Part shown: piece by piece, positions 9,246 to 20,178 of the stretch
How positions within the stretch are numbered: position 1 is the stretch's first letter
Layout: each line of letters begins with the position of its first letter
Assembly: GCA_017640605.1 (NCBI GenBank)
Contig: JAEPQH010000020.1
Span: 1 to 32,000 of the forward strand
Origin: Balneolaceae bacterium
Lineage (GTDB): Bacteria > Bacteroidota > Rhodothermia > Balneolales > Balneolaceae
DNA: 32,000 nucleotides
Reading direction: 5' to 3'
The notes under the pieces: generated by a model
The model's input: only the letters and a program-made list of their open reading frames with translations
What the model was told of the DNA's origin: nothing
Database searches by the model: none
Translations under genes and position numbers: made by a program

Positions 9246-9327
9246 ACTTTGGTTTTTAATTTGATGTCCCGTTTTTGTTCATTCAATTGTAATAGCAGTG
9301 AACGTTAATTTAAAATTTGGTGAAAGC

Positions 9328-9669
9328 ATGAATAAATATATGCTCATATTATTTGAATCCTCAGAAAATTATGCCTCCATGACCCCTCAGGAGTATCAGA
9401 ACGAAATAAATGAACACGCAAAATGGATAACCGAGTTAGGGGAACGTTATCATTCAGGGGAACCGCTGGAAAATGAATCATACTCGATACGTGGGAAAGA
9501 TAAGATTGTAACCGATGGACCTTTTATTGAAGCGAAAGAATTGGTGAGTGGTTTTTACATAATACATGCAAATAACTTAGAAGAAGCCACTGAACTTTCG
9601 AAAGGCTGCCCAATTCTGCGATTAGGTGGTTCTGTTGAAGTGCGGCCTGTAATGCACTTTGAGATGTAA
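9328..9669 (+). CDS. YciI-like / DGPF-domain protein
   Basis: About 113 aa counted from ATG 9328 ('MNKYMLILFE', a typical YciI-family N-terminus; the track ORF starts at GTG 9298). Contains the 'DGPF' motif ('VTDGPFIEAKE'). The stop overlaps the sigma-factor start (TAATG). Confidence 0.8.
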   Translation: MNKYMLILFESSENYASMTPQEYQNEINEHAKWITELGERYHSGEPLENESYSIRGKDKIVTDGPFIEAKELVSGFYIIHANNLEEATELSKGCPILRLGGSVEVRPVMHFEM

Positions 9670-10913
9670 TGCAGCCAAAAAATGAAATAATCGGCCGTCT
9701 TTTCAGGCAACAAGCGGGAAAGATGGCCTCTATTTTAATTGGAATGTTTGGATTCCAACATGCTGAACTTATAGAAGATGCCATCCAAGATACTTTTGTA
9801 GCTGCACTAAAAGTTTGGGGGATGAAGGGACTTCCGGAGCATCCCGAAGCTTGGTTAATGAAAGTAGCCAAGCATAAAACTATAAATGAACTGAGGAAAA
9901 AAGGAAGGCATAAAGAGCTAAATAAAGAGTGGAAAATAACCAAAGAAGAGGATGTTCAACTAAACTCTGAAAGTTTTACTGATAAAACTCTGGTGCACAT
10001 AAAGGCACTTTTTGGGTGTTGTAATCCATTACTTTCCCCGAAATCTCAAATAATGATTACGCTAAAGTATGTATGTGGCTTCGGCGATAAAGAGATTGCC
10101 CGTGCATTATTTATGGAGCAAGCTGCAGTTCGAAAGGCAATATATCGGGCAAAGAATGTTTTAAGAGAGCATCAGAATTTTTTACTTGAGTTATCTACGC
10201 AGGAGCTGAAACAACGATTGCCAATTGTTGAAAAAGTTCTGTATCTGATGTTTAATGAGGGATACTCAACCAGCAAGTCTGATTCTGTGTTTGATGCCGA
10301 CCTTAGCTTCGAAGCGCTCCGGCTAATAGATTGGATACTAGAAACAGAAAACCTTTCTGATGCCAGTACACATGCTTTGTATGCGCTGATGTTATTTCAA
10401 TTTTCTCGCTATGAAGCAAGATGTGATAAAAACGGGATACCACTAAGTATTGAAGAACAGAATCGGGAAATGTGGAATAAACAGGTAATAAAGAAAGGAT
10501 TATTTCACCAAAAGAAATCAAGAGAAACGGAAAAGCTGTCGAGGTATCACATCGAATCCGGAATTGCTTCTATCCATAGTACCGCATCCTCATACAATGA
10601 TACGAACTGGGATCAAATAATAACTTTATACCGACAGTTATTGACTTTCGATGACTCTGTATCAGTGAGAACTAATTTGGCTATCGCACTATGCGAACAA
10701 GGAGAAATTGAAGAAAGCCTGAATCTTCTGCATTTGTTGGTTAAATCTGAGCAAAAGAATAATTCGGTTATTTATGCATCTATTGGAAGAGTGTATTCAA
10801 AAAGTGGAGAGATTGAAAAAGCGATATCAAGCTATAATCTAGCCAAGAAACACTGTTCAACAAGATATGAGAGAGCTTTTATTGATAAAAAATTGCTTGA
10901 ATTAACTTATTAA
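9669..10913 (+). CDS. ECF-type sigma-70 family factor with a roughly 240-aa C-terminal helical/TPR-like extension (ECF42-like)
   Basis: 414 aa. Region 2 'EDAIQDTFVAALKVW...EAWLMKVAKHKTINELRK'. Region 4 HTH 'GFGDKEIARALFMEQAAVRKAIYRAKNVL'. A long C-terminal extension ends in TPR-like repeats ('GRVYSKSGEIEKAISSYNLA'). Confidence 0.85.
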   Translation: MQPKNEIIGRLFRQQAGKMASILIGMFGFQHAELIEDAIQDTFVAALKVWGMKGLPEHPEAWLMKVAKHKTINELRKKGRHKELNKEWKITKEEDVQLNSESFTDKTLVHIKALFGCCNPLLSPKSQIMITLKYVCGFGDKEIARALFMEQAAVRKAIYRAKNVLREHQNFLLELSTQELKQRLPIVEKVLYLMFNEGYSTSKSDSVFDADLSFEALRLIDWILETENLSDASTHALYALMLFQFSRYEARCDKNGIPLSIEEQNREMWNKQVIKKGLFHQKKSRETEKLSRYHIESGIASIHSTASSYNDTNWDQIITLYRQLLTFDDSVSVRTNLAIALCEQGEIEESLNLLHLLVKSEQKNNSVIYASIGRVYSKSGEIEKAISSYNLAKKHCSTRYERAFIDKKLLELTY

Positions 10914-11182
10914 TCTACAACTACCCTGAATTAAAGCAGTAAACGTTGATTTACTCAATGAGTAGAAAAAAATGTGGATAATTCAATAAAAGAAGGACGA
11001 AGAGTATATGAAATGATGGTTTAGTGCTCAGATATCGTAAAAAGAAGTAGATTTTTATAGGTATAATTAAGTAGTTTTTTGAATAATAATGTGGAAAACT
11101 CTAAAATTTTCTGCATACTTAGGCTCTTTTCGTAAAAATAAATCAAAACTACAGGCATCAACTTACTCTACAGGGGTTTGAA

Positions 11183-13038: not shown

Positions 13039-14124
13039 ATGAAAAGAATAGCACTGCTTGGTTTTCTGATACTTATAGTTGGTAGGGTAGAAAATTCTCA
13101 GGCACAAACTCATGAAGAAGGTGTGCCCTACCAGATGGAATTGATTACAAATCAGATGGTGGATCAGTTAAACGATATTCCTGCAAACATACGTAGGGTA
13201 GCTGTTTATAAGATGAACTATAACGCCATGCGTTTTACGATGCAGGAAGTAGAATTCATCCGAGGTGAAATAGAATCATCTCTTCGAACTTATGCTGGCC
13301 TAACCGTACTTTCACCTCCTGAACTGGAGCCCAATGATAAAATGAAAATCTTTGGTAGCGACAGTACTCTTCAGATCCTAAATATTCAAGGTAGGTCGTT
13401 AGCTGATGTTTCTCCTGATTTTTTATCCGAAATTACTACAAAATATGGTGTAAATGGATTAATCGAAGTAGGACTACAGCGCCGTAACCCTGACGGCTTG
13501 ATCTTGTCGATACGAATGATGAACCCAAGCTCAAGAGAAATTGTATGGTCAAAAAGTTTTATTGCCAATCCATTTGAAGTGGTTGAGAAAGTAGATAAAG
13601 GCAATACTTTTATTCTTTCCTTTGGTGCCGGTTCGATGCAAACAGATTCTAAATTCAGGGCAGACACTTCTTTTGCCAATCAGGATACTTCGATAAGTAA
13701 TCCAGTGTTAAATTATGGAGCTAATTTCACTTATCGCCAGCCATTAAACAAAGAAAATAGTGCCTACTTAGGTTTTACAGGAGGTATAGATATTTTGCGT
13801 TCTACTCGAGATGAGGATTTTAACCTGATGCTTCTTCAATTGGGTGTTACCTATTATCAGGCATTAACAACCGAAAAGAACGAGGATATTGATGATTATC
13901 GAATGATGGTATTTCTTAATACCAATGTTAAGTTTCCAATTAGCTCAACCAAAGGTGAATTGTTTACTGCAAAGCCGGGTATCATGTTTAATATGAGTAA
14001 AAACCTTGGTTTATCATTTTACACAAGCTTGATTTTATCTGGCGAAGAATTGACGTTAAGCAATAACGATAGAATAACTTACAATAAGGTTGGATATGGT
14101 GTACATGCGGTTGTCAGATTCTAA
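13039..14124 (+). CDS. Secreted envelope protein: periplasmic alpha/beta N-domain plus a probable small outer-membrane beta-barrel
   Basis: 361 aa. Cleavable signal 'LLGFLILIVGRVENSQAQ'. The C-terminal half has alternating hydrophobic beta-strand patterns and ends 'GYGVHAVVRF' (a terminal Phe, typical of OMPs). The start is 2 nt after the upstream stop, with GAGGG upstream. Confidence 0.6.
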   Translation: MKRIALLGFLILIVGRVENSQAQTHEEGVPYQMELITNQMVDQLNDIPANIRRVAVYKMNYNAMRFTMQEVEFIRGEIESSLRTYAGLTVLSPPELEPNDKMKIFGSDSTLQILNIQGRSLADVSPDFLSEITTKYGVNGLIEVGLQRRNPDGLILSIRMMNPSSREIVWSKSFIANPFEVVEKVDKGNTFILSFGAGSMQTDSKFRADTSFANQDTSISNPVLNYGANFTYRQPLNKENSAYLGFTGGIDILRSTRDEDFNLMLLQLGVTYYQALTTEKNEDIDDYRMMVFLNTNVKFPISSTKGELFTAKPGIMFNMSKNLGLSFYTSLILSGEELTLSNNDRITYNKVGYGVHAVVRF

Positions 14125-14716
14125 AATTATACTATTACTCGCGTTGGTAGCATTTGCTGGCTATAGTTGTAAATCAACCGAAGCTGCACAAGAAACTACG
14201 CAACCAACTATGCAGTCCATGACAGATGTTGGAACCACTGAAAGTGCCAATCAAGCTGAAAAAGGAGAAGAACAGGGCAATCCTGTTATAGTAACTTACC
14301 GTAATGCAAGTTCAGCCATACAGATAACTTTAGACCCGAACAAAGATGAGTTTTATCTGGATCTAAAAGGAATGACTCCCACAGAATCCGACTCGATTAT
14401 TGTGGTGGATTCATCAATGGTTAAAAATCGTGCCCGCGATATTCAGTCTTTGTTGTCGAGTTATCGAAAAGCACAGGATTTATTTTATCTGGGGGAATAC
14501 AGAGAAGCTTTAGATGAGGTTGAAAAGACTCTCAAGATTCAAGAAACAGCAGATGCATACGCTCTTAAAGGAACCATCTTTTTCATGATGGAAAACATCA
14601 CAGCAGCGCGGGCAAATTGGAATAAAGCGGTTCAAATGGATCCAAATATTCCGGTGCCTAGCATACCTGAATTAGAAACTTTAATAAACGAACTACGAGA
14701 GGACGGTGGACAATGA
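14105..14716 (+). CDS. TPR-repeat protein, probable lipoprotein
   Basis: About 203 aa counted from ATG 14105 ('MRLSDSKIILLLALVAFAGYSC'; the track ORF starts at 14090). TPR-like repeats 'YRKAQDLFYLGEYREALDEVEKTLKI...AYALKGTIFFMMENITAARANWNKAVQMDP'. The stop overlaps the next start (ATGA). Confidence 0.65.
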   Translation: MRLSDSKIILLLALVAFAGYSCKSTEAAQETTQPTMQSMTDVGTTESANQAEKGEEQGNPVIVTYRNASSAIQITLDPNKDEFYLDLKGMTPTESDSIIVVDSSMVKNRARDIQSLLSSYRKAQDLFYLGEYREALDEVEKTLKIQETADAYALKGTIFFMMENITAARANWNKAVQMDPNIPVPSIPELETLINELREDGGQ

Positions 14717-15531
14717 GGCTTTCGTTAACCAATATACTAGGGGTAATTTTCAGCATTGGCATATTAGTATTCGGAATAACCGAAATAACCAATGTAACAA
14801 CAGTATTAAGCTCAATCCCGGCATTATCGCAATATACATTTTTGAATCTGCCTAGTTTATTTATTGTGATGGGTGGGATTTTAAATGCGGTTTTCATCAC
14901 CTATCAACCAAAATATGTAGGGCAGGCTTTCGCAGGACTTTTTTACCTATTCAGTCAGGCAAAAACTTCGTCAAAAACATTGGAAAATGATTTGGGTGAG
15001 ATGCTGGTGTGGAATGATCAGATCAAAAACGACAGAGTAAATGCACTCTCGAAATTGGAAGACGAACACACAGGAGAAGTCTCAGGTTATTTATTCTCAC
15101 TTATGAGTACCAATTATTCTAATGATGATATCAAATCCTTTGGCTCTAATCACATTGAAGAACAGTATTTTCGCCAACTTGTAGTAGTAGATGTGCTGCG
15201 TGCTATGGGTGCTGCCGCGCCTTCCTTTGGTATGTTTGGTACCTTATTTGGACTGGTAGTTATGCTTGGACAACTCGAAAATCCATCGGGTATGGGGCCT
15301 GGACTTGCAGCTGCTTTAATAACGACTTTATACGGTATTTCGCTTGCACGATTTATTTTTTACCCGATTGCAGAAAAAATTAAAAATGTAGCTCAGCTCA
15401 ATCGATTTCGTGAATACTTTATCCTCGAAGGTGTATTGTTGATTAATGAGAAAAAATCATCGTTTTACATTCAGGATAAGTTGAGCACTTATTTGAGAAG
15501 AGATTTCAAAAATAAGCAAGTAGCAGACTAA
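14713..15531 (+). CDS. motA: MotA/PomA-type stator proton (ion) channel subunit
   Basis: 272 aa. Two N-terminal TM helices, a ~95-aa cytoplasmic loop, then 'AAPSFGMFGTLFGLVVML' and 'GLAAALITTLYGISLARFIFYPIAEKI'. This is the MotA-type TM3/TM4 signature with both conserved prolines, not the ExbB/TolQ pattern. Confidence 0.85.
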   Translation: MRLSLTNILGVIFSIGILVFGITEITNVTTVLSSIPALSQYTFLNLPSLFIVMGGILNAVFITYQPKYVGQAFAGLFYLFSQAKTSSKTLENDLGEMLVWNDQIKNDRVNALSKLEDEHTGEVSGYLFSLMSTNYSNDDIKSFGSNHIEEQYFRQLVVVDVLRAMGAAAPSFGMFGTLFGLVVMLGQLENPSGMGPGLAAALITTLYGISLARFIFYPIAEKIKNVAQLNRFREYFILEGVLLINEKKSSFYIQDKLSTYLRRDFKNKQVAD

Positions 15532-15543
15532 GGGAGGCTTCCG

Positions 15544-16236
15544 GTGATTAAGCGCGAATACGGCGGGAATTCAGATATTCAGGAAGAACATATTGAGGAT
15601 CAGGAATGGTTGCTCACATATAGTGATATGATCACCCTGTTGCTTGCATTTTTCGCAATGCTTATTGCCGTTTCTTACGTTGATTTAAATCTGTGGGAGC
15701 AAATGAAGCAAGGACTACGGTCAGAAATATCTAAACAAGAGGATGTTCGTACCCCACTAGCTGAAGTAAAAGCAGATTTGGATTCCCTACTGGCTGAAGA
15801 AAAATCACAAGGCTTAGTAGATATTACACTCGACCGTGACGGTATAAAATTATTCTTTTCTAGTAGCTCGTTTTATCAATCGGGTGAAGCTCAATTATTA
15901 CCGACCGGCCAGAGAATTATCGACAAAGTAACACAAGCCATGAACGCGCTGGATTTCTACAAATTTAATGTAGATGTAGAAGGACATACAGACAATGTTC
16001 CCATCAACACGCCAATATATCCGTCGAACTGGGAATTGTCGGTGGCAAGAGCCTCCGGTGTGGTAAAATATTTTATTGAAGAAGGTATTGAAGCAGAACG
16101 ACTTAAAGCGTCGGGCTATGCCGATACCAAGCCGGTAGTGCCACATGTGGATGAAGAAGGCAGGAATATTATTGAGAACAGAGCCCTCAACAGAAGAATT
16201 GTTGTACGTATTTATTATCAATTGGCAACAAACTGA
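15544..16236 (+). CDS. motB: MotB-type stator subunit with an OmpA-like peptidoglycan-binding domain
   Basis: 230 aa. GTG start preceded by GGGAGG at a 6-nt spacing. 'WLLTYSDMITLLLAFFAML' is the MotB TM/plug signature with the channel Asp. The C-terminus has 'GHTDNVPI...NWELSVARA...GYADTKPV...NRRIVV' (OmpA family). Confidence 0.88.
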   Translation: MIKREYGGNSDIQEEHIEDQEWLLTYSDMITLLLAFFAMLIAVSYVDLNLWEQMKQGLRSEISKQEDVRTPLAEVKADLDSLLAEEKSQGLVDITLDRDGIKLFFSSSSFYQSGEAQLLPTGQRIIDKVTQAMNALDFYKFNVDVEGHTDNVPINTPIYPSNWELSVARASGVVKYFIEEGIEAERLKASGYADTKPVVPHVDEEGRNIIENRALNRRIVVRIYYQLATN

Positions 16237-16281: not shown

Positions 16282-19215
16282 ATGCCTATGAAAATACTAT
16301 TACTTTCGCTGTCACTACTTTTTTTCGGGATTCAACAAGTACACGCTCAATCCATATCCGACTCAACCACTACCAGTATATTTTCGTCCAAAGCTCTATA
16401 TCAGTCAGATGTTTTAAGGGCGTTATCAGGACTCGCACCGGGGCTCATAATTCACTCTACAGGTGGAGTTTCCGGAACAGGGACAAATCCTGTTTTTCGA
16501 AGCTATTCGAGCTTAAATGCGCCCAGCAATCCATTAATAATAGTTGATGGCGTCAGGTTTGATGGGGCAAATAATCATAATAGCAGCGCATTTAACGGAG
16601 GAGGTTCTCTAGTTACTCCAAACCGATCTTTCGATCTTCATCCTTCCGAAATTGTTTCGGTGAATGTTTTAAGCTCACTAGAAGGTACATTTTTGTACGG
16701 CGAAGAAGCCACAAATGGAGTTATTGAAATTACAACCAGAAGAAACGCAATCGATTTAACCAGAGAAGGCTACGAGCTTACAATAGATCAAAGTGTTTAT
16801 TCCACGAGTATGTCGAGCCGACCGGATTATCAAAACCAATTTGGAATGGGTTTTAACGGTCAATATGGTCCATTTTTTAGTTCCTGGGGAGCCTCTTTTG
16901 ATAGCCGGGATCCTGCAGATTTTCCATCCAATTTTAATGGACTGGATAACGATGGTGCTGTATTAGTAGATCATCCTTATGGTTTTTACAATTTCACAAG
17001 TGATGGTGCTCCTGATTATGCCACCGAAGTGTATCGCTATGAAGCAAGAGAAACCCCTACCGATGCTTACTTCAGAAATGGTATTGGAAGTCGTTCATTT
17101 ATAGATTTGAATTACAAAAAAGGGAGCACTTCCTGGAGTTTCAATTACGCCGGAAATCAGGAAGAAGGCTTTACGCCCAACAATGCTTTTCTTAAAAACA
17201 GTTTTGGAAGCTCCGTTAAGTATCAACTTTTAGATAATGTACATGGTACATCAAGTTTACAGTTTTTATTTACGGATGTTAAAATGCCACCCTTATCGGC
17301 AGGAAGTGGAAGTGGAGTTGTAGAAGGTGGAGCAACAACAGGAGCATTCACCTACCTGTTTTTTACTCCGAGGTCTATCGACTTAGCACTACCAAATAGT
17401 TCGCCCGATAATAATGGCTTTACCTATTACCGCCCGGATATAATTCATCCTGTTTGGTTTGCAAATAATGCCTCAACCACTAATGAAACCAATCGCATAC
17501 TGGGTAAAACTGCCCTTCATTTTACTCCCTCAGATCGATTTCAATTCAACTACACCTATACATTTGATAGTTACGATGAGAATCAGGAGTACAAGCTAAA
17601 TCCTACGGGGACTTTCAACTTTCCTTATGTATTAGGGCTCTACCAAACCATTGAAATTGATCGAACGCTTCTCGATAATTTTGCACTTGCTACGTATCGT
17701 CCAAATTTAGGGAATAGGCTCTTTGCAGAAGTGCGACTCGGTGGGCATTATATGAGCGAAAATATTAATGAAAAAGGGCTGGAAAGCACCGATATACGAG
17801 AGTATGGTGTTTTTGAACACGATAATTTTAGGGTTCAAAGCTCTACGAATTCATTTACCAACGAGTTGATGGAAAGAGAGTTTGAACGCCGATCGTTTGG
17901 TGCATTTGGCTCGATGGAGTTAGAGCTTGATCGATGGATATATACTGATGTTGGCGTTCGCAGGCAGTGGAATCAATCGCTGCATCAACAAGATATGAAT
18001 GCGGTTTATCCTTACGTCACTTTTGGTGTAATTCCATCAAATGTGCTGGTGGATAATGACGAAATCCTGAGCAATTTAGATTTCTCATTTTCTTATTTCA
18101 CATCAGGCAGATCGATTTTAACAGAACTTGAAATTTTAGTACAAGATCGGCCCAGTGTTGGGTTAAACGATGAGTTAAAACCAGAAAGATCAATTGAAAA
18201 ACAAGTTGCGGCAACGGTCGGTCTATTTAAAGATCGAATTTCTTTCTCCGGGAAATATTATCAAAGAATACATACCGATTTAATCTCCAGAATTGCTGTA
18301 AATCCTACACAAGGCTTCGGCTCGATACTCGATAATTTACTCGAAATGGAAGTAGAGGGCTTTGATGCTCAGGCGGTATTAGTACCACTCGAAGGAAAAG
18401 TTAATTGGAAGATTATTTCGAATTTTAGCACCACCAAAGCAGACGTTAAAGAATACACAGGTACTTTTAATGCAATTCAATTAGGAAATAGCCAATCTTT
18501 TCGGGGAAATCTGGCTCAGGTTAATGAACCTTATCTAAGCATGTATGGTAGTACCGTTTTACGGGTTACAAGTGATATTCAGAGGGCAGATCCCAATATG
18601 AGATCTGTTCCCATTGGCACACCAATTATCGATAATAATGGAAATTACCTTACCGATCAGAATGATATTATCGGAAACCCAATACCCGACTGGAATCTCT
18701 CTACCTTACAACAAGTACGGTACAAGAACCTAAGCTTTTCTATTCAGATTGATTATCAAAGAGGGGGCGACATGTACAGTAGCTGGATTAGTTCACTGGT
18801 TGGAAGGGGTTTAATTTCATCAACGCTCGACAGAGAAGAGACATTTATTATTGAAGGTGTAAAATTTGATGGTACTCAGAACGATATTGAGATCAGTAAG
18901 CAACAATACTATTTCAGTAATCTGGGGTTTGGCCCCGATGAATTGAGAGTTTATGATATGACTCATTTACGCATTTCTCATATCGGGTTTTCATATCAAG
19001 TTCCGCAGCAATGGATTACAAAAACAGGGTTTAAAGAGGTAATTATTTCCTTTTCGGTAGAAAATGCCTTTCTGAAAATGTACAATATTCCAGAAGGTAC
19101 AGGTTTTGATCCGAACGTAAACTCGAATGGGGCAGGACTTAACAATCTAGGTTTTGAATACTTAACCGGTCCCGGTGCTCGTAGATTCGGTGGTTCGTTA
19201 CGAGTTCGCATATAA
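16282..19215 (+). CDS. SusC/RagA-like TonB-dependent-receptor-family outer-membrane protein (plug plus large beta-barrel)
   Basis: 977 aa. Signal 'LLLSLSLLFFGIQQVHAQ'. Plug-like region 'DVLRALSGLAPGLII...NPLIIVDGVRFDG...EGTFLYGEEATNGVIEITTRR'. The remainder is long and rich in aromatic/Gly beta-strands, ending 'RFGGSLRVRI'. Confidence 0.8.
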   Translation: MPMKILLLSLSLLFFGIQQVHAQSISDSTTTSIFSSKALYQSDVLRALSGLAPGLIIHSTGGVSGTGTNPVFRSYSSLNAPSNPLIIVDGVRFDGANNHNSSAFNGGGSLVTPNRSFDLHPSEIVSVNVLSSLEGTFLYGEEATNGVIEITTRRNAIDLTREGYELTIDQSVYSTSMSSRPDYQNQFGMGFNGQYGPFFSSWGASFDSRDPADFPSNFNGLDNDGAVLVDHPYGFYNFTSDGAPDYATEVYRYEARETPTDAYFRNGIGSRSFIDLNYKKGSTSWSFNYAGNQEEGFTPNNAFLKNSFGSSVKYQLLDNVHGTSSLQFLFTDVKMPPLSAGSGSGVVEGGATTGAFTYLFFTPRSIDLALPNSSPDNNGFTYYRPDIIHPVWFANNASTTNETNRILGKTALHFTPSDRFQFNYTYTFDSYDENQEYKLNPTGTFNFPYVLGLYQTIEIDRTLLDNFALATYRPNLGNRLFAEVRLGGHYMSENINEKGLESTDIREYGVFEHDNFRVQSSTNSFTNELMEREFERRSFGAFGSMELELDRWIYTDVGVRRQWNQSLHQQDMNAVYPYVTFGVIPSNVLVDNDEILSNLDFSFSYFTSGRSILTELEILVQDRPSVGLNDELKPERSIEKQVAATVGLFKDRISFSGKYYQRIHTDLISRIAVNPTQGFGSILDNLLEMEVEGFDAQAVLVPLEGKVNWKIISNFSTTKADVKEYTGTFNAIQLGNSQSFRGNLAQVNEPYLSMYGSTVLRVTSDIQRADPNMRSVPIGTPIIDNNGNYLTDQNDIIGNPIPDWNLSTLQQVRYKNLSFSIQIDYQRGGDMYSSWISSLVGRGLISSTLDREETFIIEGVKFDGTQNDIEISKQQYYFSNLGFGPDELRVYDMTHLRISHIGFSYQVPQQWITKTGFKEVIISFSVENAFLKMYNIPEGTGFDPNVNSNGAGLNNLGFEYLTGPGARRFGGSLRVRI

Positions 19216-19300
19216 TTGGCACACAAGTTGTACTTAAGATCTCAGAATTCGACCGATAAATTAGAGGTACGGTAGAAGAACCAAATTTTGAGAGGGCCAG

Positions 19301-19459
19301 ATGATGGAAAGAGATATTCGAAATATTATGATGCAGTTGGAAATGCTGTTGGAGGAATACCCTGAAGCAAAATTCTACATTTATAATGGAATTAGAACTA
19401 TGGTTTCAGATTTACTCAACTCTGTAGACTGCATTGACGACTTGAGAGAAGAGTCGTAA
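19301..19459 (+). CDS. Small hypothetical ORF (52 aa), not in the supplied track
   Basis: ATG 19301 to TAA 19457-19459. The product 'MMERDIRNIMMQLEMLLEEYPEAKFYIYNGIRTMVSDLLNSVDCIDDLREES' looks helical and acidic. GAGAGGG lies upstream. Hairpins follow. I recognise no homology. Confidence 0.3.
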   Translation: MMERDIRNIMMQLEMLLEEYPEAKFYIYNGIRTMVSDLLNSVDCIDDLREES

Positions 19460-19535
19460 ACGTTTTGTGTTAAGAACCCCTGATACCCCTCGGCTCGCTT
19501 TTTTGATTGTGCGAGCCGTATTGATAGATGACCCC

Positions 19536-19571
19536 AAAAGCCTCACTGGAAAGTGAGGCTTTTTCTTTTTT
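19536..19571 (+). terminator. Rho-independent terminator closing the 11183-19459 transcription unit
   Basis: AAAAGCCTCAC-TGGAAA-GTGAGGCTTTT hairpin followed by TTTTCTTTTTT. An additional hairpin CGGCTCGC-n12-GCGAGCCG lies at 19491-19518. Confidence 0.75.
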
Positions 19572-19656
19572 CAATTCTTCGTGATCTATCAGGTTTTGCT
19601 TCTTGGTGTTGCTTATAAACAAACATATGTTGATCATTTGCATTTATAATTAAGTA

Positions 19657-20178
19657 ATGGCTAGCACACCAAGCATAGAAATCCTTCTCTCCAAATATTT
19701 TAAACCCGAAGCAGAACGGGTATTAAAAGAACATCCTGAGCTTATAAATCAGGTTTTACCCATCTGTTTAACCAACGAAGCTCCAATGTGCTGGCGCGCA
19801 GCATGGGTAGCCCGAACTGTAATTGAAGAAAATGACGCAAGAGTTCGCCCCTACATCGATAAAATACTTGATGTATTACCTGAAAAAGAGGATGGTCATC
19901 AACGCGAATTGATGAAGTTACTTCAACGCATGAAGTTAAGCGACGATCAGGAAAGTATTTTATACGACCAATCTGTTACAATTTGGGAATCGGTTCGTAA
20001 AAAACCTTCGGTTAGATATACTGCCTTCGAACATATTATTAATATGGTATATAAGTATCCCGAGCTGGAGCAGGAACTAGACGCAATCACTCAGCCTCAA
20101 TATCTGAATTCATTAAGTCCGGGAGTTAAAGCCGGCGTATTCAAATCTCTCTCAAAGTTAAAAAAGAGCATGGAATAG
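19657..20178 (+). CDS. Hypothetical helical-repeat protein
   Basis: 173-aa ORF with coding-like composition and a helical, HEAT-like appearance. I recognise no motif confidently. Confidence 0.55.
   Translation: MASTPSIEILLSKYFKPEAERVLKEHPELINQVLPICLTNEAPMCWRAAWVARTVIEENDARVRPYIDKILDVLPEKEDGHQRELMKLLQRMKLSDDQESILYDQSVTIWESVRKKPSVRYTAFEHIINMVYKYPELEQELDAITQPQYLNSLSPGVKAGVFKSLSKLKKSME

Follow-up and report, generated by a model that had tools for sequence, protein, structure and literature searches.

Which machine does a MotA/MotB-type stator serve when it is encoded beside a FliG-like gene rather than among flagellar, Ton or Tol genes? The question is raised by a stretch of 32,000 nucleotides from a Balneolaceae bacterium (assembly GCA_017640605.1, contig JAEPQH010000020.1, positions 1 to 32,000 of the forward strand; hereafter the window), in which the neighbouring genes at 14713-15531 and 15544-16236 encode a flagellar-type, PomA/PomB-like MotA/MotB stator. 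As a paralogue, this stator is distinct from the one that serves the flagellum; together with a tetratricopeptide repeat (TPR) lipoprotein, a barrel protein of the outer membrane and a membrane-anchored FliG-like protein it is inherited as a five-gene block. Because pairs of this type are always accompanied by the FliG-like protein and are kept in relatives without flagella, the block points to an undescribed envelope motor; our literature search found no paper describing this gene block. Coordinates, lengths and residue equivalences are collected in Table 1.

The A subunit matches the Pfam family MotA_ExbB with 68 bits (E 8.6e-19), and among the NCBIfam models those of stators score between E 4e-33 and 8e-12 (MotP 4e-33, PomA 6e-28, MotA 3e-24), whereas the TolQ and ExbB models reach only 1e-3. 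A phmmer search of the PDB returns PomA as the top match (6.5e-23), with MotA chains also found and TolQ/ExbB at 0.02-0.09, a difference of 20 orders of magnitude in E-value; the domain matches of both subunits lie far above chance level. The AlphaFold2 model, built from 86 sequences (predicted local distance difference test score, pLDDT, 86; predicted template modelling score 0.77), has four transmembrane (TM) helices and a four-helix cytoplasmic domain, the latter formed by residues 87-106, 108-118 and 123-132 together with the cytoplasmic start of TM3, which is continuous as one helix of residues 137-186. By alignment, the A subunit lacks the fifth-helix insertion of the Escherichia coli type. 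All of the first 23 Foldseek ranks are PomA or MotA chains with TM-scores of 0.65-0.74, and ExbB/TolQ chains follow from rank 24 with 0.41-0.47. The original prediction had rested on a MotA/PomA-type TM3/TM4 signature, of which both strings are present along with both channel prolines, P170 (one residue before the quoted string) and P218, each invariant in the 86-sequence alignment. The three PomA threonines T158, T185 and T186 are common to all sodium-driven stators, two of them being alanine in proton-driven ones (Hu et al., PMC10374538); all three selectivity positions are threonine in the window's A subunit, which makes Na+ coupling the likelier, and the ion of this stator is, judging by these residues, probably Na+. 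The cytoplasmic domain also carries a family-specific motif, the TxY core of which (TNY or TGY) is found in all aligned relatives at a place where canonical stators have DG; its tyrosine is invariant in one alignment (A1) and nearly so in another (A2).

The B subunit has a TM helix with the channel aspartate, a plug and an OmpA-type peptidoglycan-binding domain, as had been proposed from the sequence, with a short linker between the last two. It matches Pfam MotB_plug (E 1.5e-13, residues 14-60) and OmpA (E 1.7e-16) and the NCBIfam models of MotD, MotS and MotB, while the PDB search gives MotB at 4.8e-27 and matches to solved MotB, MotS and PomB chains. The aspartate, D28, shows no variation among the 27 sequences aligned, which comprise 25 cluster relatives, E. 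coli MotB and the MotB of the genome's own flagellum. Between distant lineages, conservation is higher in the MotB-like protein than in the MotA-like one (56-58% vs 39-44% identity to loci L003 and L004; 75% vs 53% to L006), which is the opposite of the usual flagellar-stator pattern.

In sequence and in fold, the best match of the pair is the Vibrio PomA5PomB2 complex (PDB 8BRD/8BRI), with other four-helix (TGI4-type) MotAB/MotPS stators. With PomA5PomB2 the pair shares the four TM helices, both channel prolines, the three selectivity threonines, the B-subunit aspartate, the plug, the OmpA-type anchor and a basic residue at the R88/R90 position. It differs from these stators in being just 25-31% identical to them, in the STNYS motif, in an acid cluster shifted relative to E96/E98, in a TM1-TM2 loop that is longer in most relatives and in a very short B-subunit linker, as well as in the gene context and distribution described below. 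Puente-Lelievre et al. (2025, PMC12505986) divide the superfamily into generic and flagellar ion transporters (GIT and FIT) and characterize the latter by an expanded cytoplasmic domain, a continuous TM3, a plug with linker and an OmpA-like domain, traits that they take as specific to flagellar motility. The window's pair shows the TM2-TM3 domain of at least four helices, the continuous TM3, the TM aspartate, the plug and the OmpA-like domain, and thus has the same traits as FIT stators, yet in a non-flagellar gene block.

A maximum-likelihood tree of 102 sequences separates the MotA-like protein from ExbB/TolQ (E. coli sequences and the genome's own copies) with a Shimodaira-Hasegawa approximate likelihood-ratio support of 99, so that the protein stands outside that group; it falls in a clade of 47 sequences (support 99) nested in one of 83 (support 98) on the MotA side. 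Ordinary flagellar MotA, both from E. coli and from the genome itself, lies nearer the root, which suggests that the A subunit descended from a flagellar stator, although sampling of the tree is query-biased and its deep support modest. The best NCBIfam equivalog scores are 114.5 bits against a cut-off of 394 for the A subunit and 161.5 against 283 for the B subunit; as these lie far under every equivalog cut-off, the pair forms a distinct paralogue family. Sequence, predicted fold and tree thus agree with the earlier view of a true stator paralogue.

That view had also set aside the ExbD/TolR type, ZorA and GldL/GldM, exclusions borne out between them by the PDB search, PADLOC, Foldseek and the tree. 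An ExbB or TolQ identity is rejected on scores of 18 bits against a cut-off of 221 (TIGR02796) and 16 against 206 (TIGR02797), on the OmpA domain of the partner and on the fold; common ground is limited to the MotA_ExbB superfamily and to features of the block that recall Tol-Pal, and ExbD/TolR differ in having neither plug nor OmpA domain. GldL is rejected too, since neither ZorA nor GldL chains occur among PDB sequence matches to the A subunit at E up to 1, nor GldL among the 50 listed Foldseek matches. AglRS belong to the generic group (PMC12505986), the features of which the window's stator lacks, and on that ground it would probably differ from the AglR/AglQS type, for which one would expect a TolQ-like A subunit with a condensed cytoplasmic domain and B subunits that have no peptidoglycan-binding domain. 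An anti-phage system of the Zorya kind, built on a MotAB-type motor, could account for the generic ZorB matches (67 bits) that PADLOC gives to the B subunit; we regard it as very improbable, as ZorA finds no match, the A subunit has 272 residues without the long tail, the block contains no ZorC/D/E effector genes (neither ZorC/D-like nuclease nor helicase genes), and it lies outside any defence island among neighbours that are stable within the genus. A ZorA identity is accordingly rejected.

What, then, travels with this stator? We compared 40 loci from relatives' genomes and eight from public assemblies, the lineage names of the distant loci being source labels. In the type-1 order, a FliG-like gene (about 590-650 aa) is followed by genes for the barrel protein (357-397 aa), the TPR lipoprotein (168-257 aa), the MotA-like and the MotB-like protein. 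This order recurs in all 20 relatives' loci with enough contig and in five distinct loci from metagenome-assembled genomes (MAGs) or metagenomes of other lineages, including loci labelled Fibrobacteria and Fibrobacteraceae (Fibrobacterota). In type-2 loci the barrel gene is replaced by an upstream gene for a protein of about 1000 aa ending in the same kind of TPR motif, preceded in a Bacteroidales MAG by a DUF4402 protein. A second paralogous block, on contig C16 of the window's own genome, likewise pairs MotA/MotB with a FliG-like protein. A third and more distant MotA/MotB group consists of orphan pairs without a FliG-like neighbour. Against the closest species, the ratio of nonsynonymous to synonymous substitution rates (dN/dS) is 0.009 for MotA, 0.013 for MotB, 0.022 for the FliG-like gene and 0.03-0.06 for the other genes, values that are approximate because dS is high (about 1.6-1.7); in seven more distant orthologues synonymous sites are saturated, so usable ratios come from the closest species only. 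Purifying selection on the block is strong, and the low dN/dS excludes a relic. Rotor or stator genes have been reported from non-motile genomes in surveys that discuss remnants (PMC12199754), and one might see here what is left, decaying and functionless, of a flagellar system, either a second or an ancestral one; with five intact genes in a fixed order across genera and phyla, and with MotB 56-58% identical between Balneolales and Fibrobacterota-type loci, that is hardly credible.

The host genome (3.74 Mb, 99.8% complete) carries all of a flagellar locus on contig C21, apart from the window's contig, with the order fliF-fliG-fliH-fliI...flgE-motA-motB-fliL. A displaced flagellar stator, which a flagellar locus without its own motAB would have implied, is therefore rejected. 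In a sample of 201 genomes of the order, scores of the MotA-like query fall into classes of at least 300 bits for orthologues, 170-230 for type 2 and 80-98 for flagellar MotA. FlhA is present in 86 of the 201 and absent from all 22, 10 and 1 sampled genomes of three genera; among carriers of the MotA-like genes, 17 of 34 with type 1 and 33 of 50 with type 2 have no FlhA, counts tallied across two result tables and including one fragmented assembly among the 17. In five FlhA-less carriers that we checked, four of them single-contig genomes, neither flagellin nor rod proteins nor an ordinary FliG was found, and the only FliG_C matches were open reading frames (ORFs) of 610-650 aa located 2-3 kb from the MotA-like genes. 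Beyond the order, only four genomes in a sample of 401 from the phylum match at E <=1e-28.

These distributions bear on a rival explanation, namely that the pair is an auxiliary stator of the flagellum, comparable to MotCD, MotPS or LafTU, which docks conditionally on the ordinary C-ring while the FliG-like neighbour is otherwise employed. The window's genome and all its congeners are flagellated, all five carriers in a sample of 121 Fibrobacterota genomes have FlhA and a normal FliG, and in its fold and its channel residues the pair agrees with flagellar stators that work. We nevertheless consider this explanation rather improbable: orthologues with 72-82% identity are intact in genomes that have no FlhA, flagellin, rod proteins or ordinary FliG, the flagellar locus already holds a motAB of its own, the cytoplasmic domain bears the family-specific STNYS motif, and the loci examined all place the pair next to a FliG-like gene of its own and none next to flagellar genes.

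The FliG-like protein, which we take to be the stator's likely partner, matches solved FliG chains over residues 309-615 in the PDB search. It is organized as a signal or TM segment, a periplasmic domain, a TM segment at 230-251 and a cytoplasmic region like the N, M and C domains of FliG; positive-inside residues past the TM segment place the FliG part in the cytoplasm, on the same side as the stator loop. R578, which lies within an RPxRE motif and corresponds to FliG R281, does not vary among the 25 relatives, and E586, the equivalent of D289, is glutamate in the relatives except for three Fibrobacterota-type loci, where it is glycine. On the stator side, the equivalent of MotA R90, K105, is lysine or arginine in most relatives, and those three loci have glutamine at this position with the acid at the E98 position kept; the paired change, a single evolutionary event, fits the classical R90-D289 and E98-R281 pairs. 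From these alignments the classical rotor-stator charges appear largely kept on both partners. Taken with the strict synteny, the kept torque-helix charges indirectly support the proposal, made when the sequence was first read, that the FliG-like protein three genes upstream is the probable partner. The FliM-binding motif EHPQ reads EESD in this protein, whereas the genome's real FliG keeps EHPQ, and a switch complex is therefore not expected.

The arrangement recalls the FliF/FliG rotor and, in particular, the engineered FliF-FliG fusions (PDB 8Z4D): the neighbour likewise has FliG N/M/C domains with equivalents of R281 and D289, and its FliG part lies in the cytoplasm behind a membrane anchor. 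It differs in being a natural single polypeptide without EHPQ, with a periplasmic part not detectably FliF-like in sequence searches, and genes for an export gate, a rod, a hook or FliM/FliN are missing from the block. The rotor of the paralogous block gives a weak Pfam hint of FliF only.

The remaining partners carry the block to the outer membrane. No Pfam family matches the 361-aa protein, which has a signal peptide and for which AlphaFold2 (pLDDT 81.8) predicts a periplasmic alpha/beta domain and an eight-stranded barrel ending in F; by Foldseek, the periplasmic domain resembles the TolB N-terminal domain and LpoB, and the barrel OmpA, OmpX and NspA. With the TPR lipoprotein, this barrel protein and the peptidoglycan-bound MotB, the block covers the whole envelope. 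Such partners might also belong to an energiser of the Tol-Pal or TonB kind, in which ion flow drives conformational work on outer-membrane partners and the FliG-like protein is a static adaptor or regulator. There is a likeness to Tol-Pal in the set of partners (a TolB-N/LpoB-like domain, a TPR protein comparable to CpoB, an OmpA-type peptidoglycan binder), and in the window's genus a barrel of the TonB-dependent type comes next. Against this stand the expanded four-helix domain and continuous TM3, which by the criteria of PMC12505986 are of the torque-generating type and not the condensed ExbB/TolQ domain, the kept torque-helix charges of FliG, the absence of the SusC-like gene from most carriers and the lack of any TolA/TonB-like gene in the block; we judge an energiser unlikely.

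The reading that we favour, with moderate confidence, is that the stator and the FliG-like rotor form a non-flagellar envelope motor. The stator would assemble as the usual A5B2 complex, fixed to peptidoglycan by the OmpA domain of the B subunit, and flow of ions (probably Na+) past D28 would turn the ring of A subunits. Their cytoplasmic domain (K105, E115/D117/E118) would push against R578 and E586 in the torque helix of the FliG-like protein, which, being anchored in the inner membrane and lacking the FliM-binding motif, would serve as a plain, switchless rotor. Its periplasmic domain might then hand the movement to the barrel and TPR proteins and on to a variable outer-membrane or surface protein, which in the window's genus would be the SusC-like barrel.

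Several observations weigh against such a motor. The window's genome and the five Fibrobacterota carriers are flagellated, so that a link to swimming may exist in those hosts. By the NCBIfam scores, far under the equivalog cut-offs, neither subunit is an orthologue of any named stator. The position equivalent to E98 is neutral (serine) in Balneolales, with an acid cluster 3-6 residues further on, and the equivalents of FliG K264 and R297 are not conserved. A PDB sequence search did not show the periplasmic part of the rotor to resemble FliF. Lastly, covariation between stator loop and torque helix, which had been suggested as a check, is seen in so far as the D289 and R90 equivalents change together in three loci, but the hint comes from one lineage and is one evolutionary event only.

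[quoted passage not shown] Candidate devices encoded beside the core may be the SusC-like barrel in the window's genus, the giant CHU_C protein of locus L053 and the Fib_succ_major protein of L050, and in the paralogous block an usher-like protein of 1000 aa with DUF4402-type secreted subunits. If this were true, bacterial rotary machines would gain a new class, and a living organism would show what a part of the flagellar motor does by itself. The proposed motor matters on other grounds as well. An enlarged cytoplasmic domain, a plug and an OmpA anchor are now counted as hallmarks of flagellar motility (PMC12505986), and here all three occur beside a putative FliG-like rotor of their own, in a stator that selection upholds in bacteria without a flagellum. 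For the origin of the flagellar motor, the block provides a rotor-stator pair at its simplest, lacking switch, export gate and rod, that lends itself to structural study, and it may reveal a new route by which inner-membrane ion energy reaches the outer membrane.

In the window, the ORF list gives six co-directional genes between 11183 and 19215, the five-gene core and an accessory sixth gene. They are closely packed: 2 nt separate the first gene from the second, the second and third overlap, the stop of the TPR gene overlaps the MotA start by 4 nt, MotB starts 12 nt after MotA, and the sixth gene 45 nt after MotB. A hairpin scan found none between the six genes as strong as that at 19536-19563.

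Table 1. Features of the gene block, with positions counted from the first nucleotide of the window
Feature	Position	Strand	Evidence
Promoter-like site 5' of the FliG-like gene	11079..11107	+	Consensus match only
FliG-like protein, probable rotor partner, 617 aa	11183..13036	+	Pfam FliG_M and FliG_C
Outer-membrane partner, 361 aa	13039..14124	+	No Pfam match; AlphaFold2 and Foldseek; position kept in type-1 loci
TPR lipoprotein, 208 aa	14090..14716	+	Pfam TPR; position kept in type-1 loci
MotA/PomA-type stator A subunit, 272 aa	14713..15531	+	Pfam PF01618, NCBIfam, PDB, AlphaFold2, Foldseek, tree
Loop charges: K105 (= E. coli MotA R90) and acid cluster E115/D117/E118 just past the E98 position	15019..15066	+	Alignment with E. 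coli MotA and Vibrio PomA
Family-specific STNYS motif of the cytoplasmic domain, type-1 Balneolales form	15106..15120	+	Alignments
TM3 channel motif APSFGMFGT: P170 (= E. coli P173), T177 (= PomA T158)	15217..15243	+	Alignment
TM4 motif ITTLYG...FYPIAEK: T204/T205 (= PomA T185/T186), P218 (= P222)	15319..15378	+	Alignment
MotB-type stator B subunit, 230 aa	15544..16236	+	Pfam MotB_plug and OmpA, NCBIfam, PDB
WLLTYSDM with ion-binding D28 (= E. coli MotB D32)	15607..15630	+	Alignment
Plug-like amphipathic segment LWEQMKQGLRSE, right behind the TM helix	15691..15726	+	MotB_plug; kept in type-1 orthologues
OmpA-type peptidoglycan-binding motifs GHTDNVPI, SNWELSVARA, NRRIVV	15982..16206	+	Pfam, alignment
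SusC/RagA-like outer-membrane barrel, 977 aa, accessory sixth gene	16282..19215	+	NCBIfam TIGR04056
Strong terminator-like hairpin 3' of the sixth gene	19536..19563	+	Hairpin scan

The sixth gene scores 228 bits with NCBIfam TIGR04056, under the cut-off of that model. It is found in the congeners L007 and L008 and is absent from L010 and from all other loci, and the upstream YCII/ECF-sigma (extracytoplasmic function sigma factor) pair is distributed in the same way; as both occur in part of the genus only, they are accessory. A core role for the SusC-like gene, with MotAB replacing ExbBD for a TonB-dependent barrel, was considered and rejected on this distribution (two of three congeners, no other genus). 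The segments at 9298-10913 (the YCII/ECF-sigma pair) and 16282-20178 (the SusC-like gene and a 173-aa ORF) are present in L007 and L008 and missing in L010, where the five-gene core lies directly between the same histidine-kinase/GNAT genes and an SSS transporter gene. The gene that follows the five-gene core varies by lineage and is always of a large secreted or surface type: a CHU_C protein of 7051 aa in L053 (9844-16804), a Fib_succ_major protein in L050 (9997-10824) and an 837-aa protein without a Pfam match in L004 (10640-13153).

The paralogous block on contig C16 (L001, 22000-40000; 306-11130) begins with three small secreted proteins and two others of 288 and 998 aa, the latter with a TPR-motif end, and continues with a FliG-like protein of 617 aa, a TPR protein of 185 aa, a MotA-like protein of 265 aa and a MotB-like protein of 627 aa with a SPOR domain extension, an arrangement reminiscent of a chaperone-usher fibre system coupled to a rotor-stator pair. 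The C-terminus of the 998-aa type-2 protein carries the TPR motif of the separate TPR lipoproteins, ALKG...W..A...P..(I/V)P, and BLASTP aligns type-2 proteins with the window's lipoprotein (14090-14716) at 57 bits in L001 (3055-6051) and at 56-67 bits across type-2 loci.

The orphan MotA/MotB pairs comprise L037-L041 and L046, from the same order, and L052, on a contig labelled Rhodospirillaceae; they are 31-35% identical to the window's pair, and their B subunit has a long N-terminal extension. On the minus strand of contig C11 of the window's genome, a 461-aa ORF (120625-122010) matches MotA_ExbB weakly, at 24 bits, and its branch in the tree is very long. In the Fibrobacterota sample, a MotA-like sequence at G576:C1:935189-935950, with 35% identity to the protein of L003, contains one in-frame TAA and may be a broken copy.

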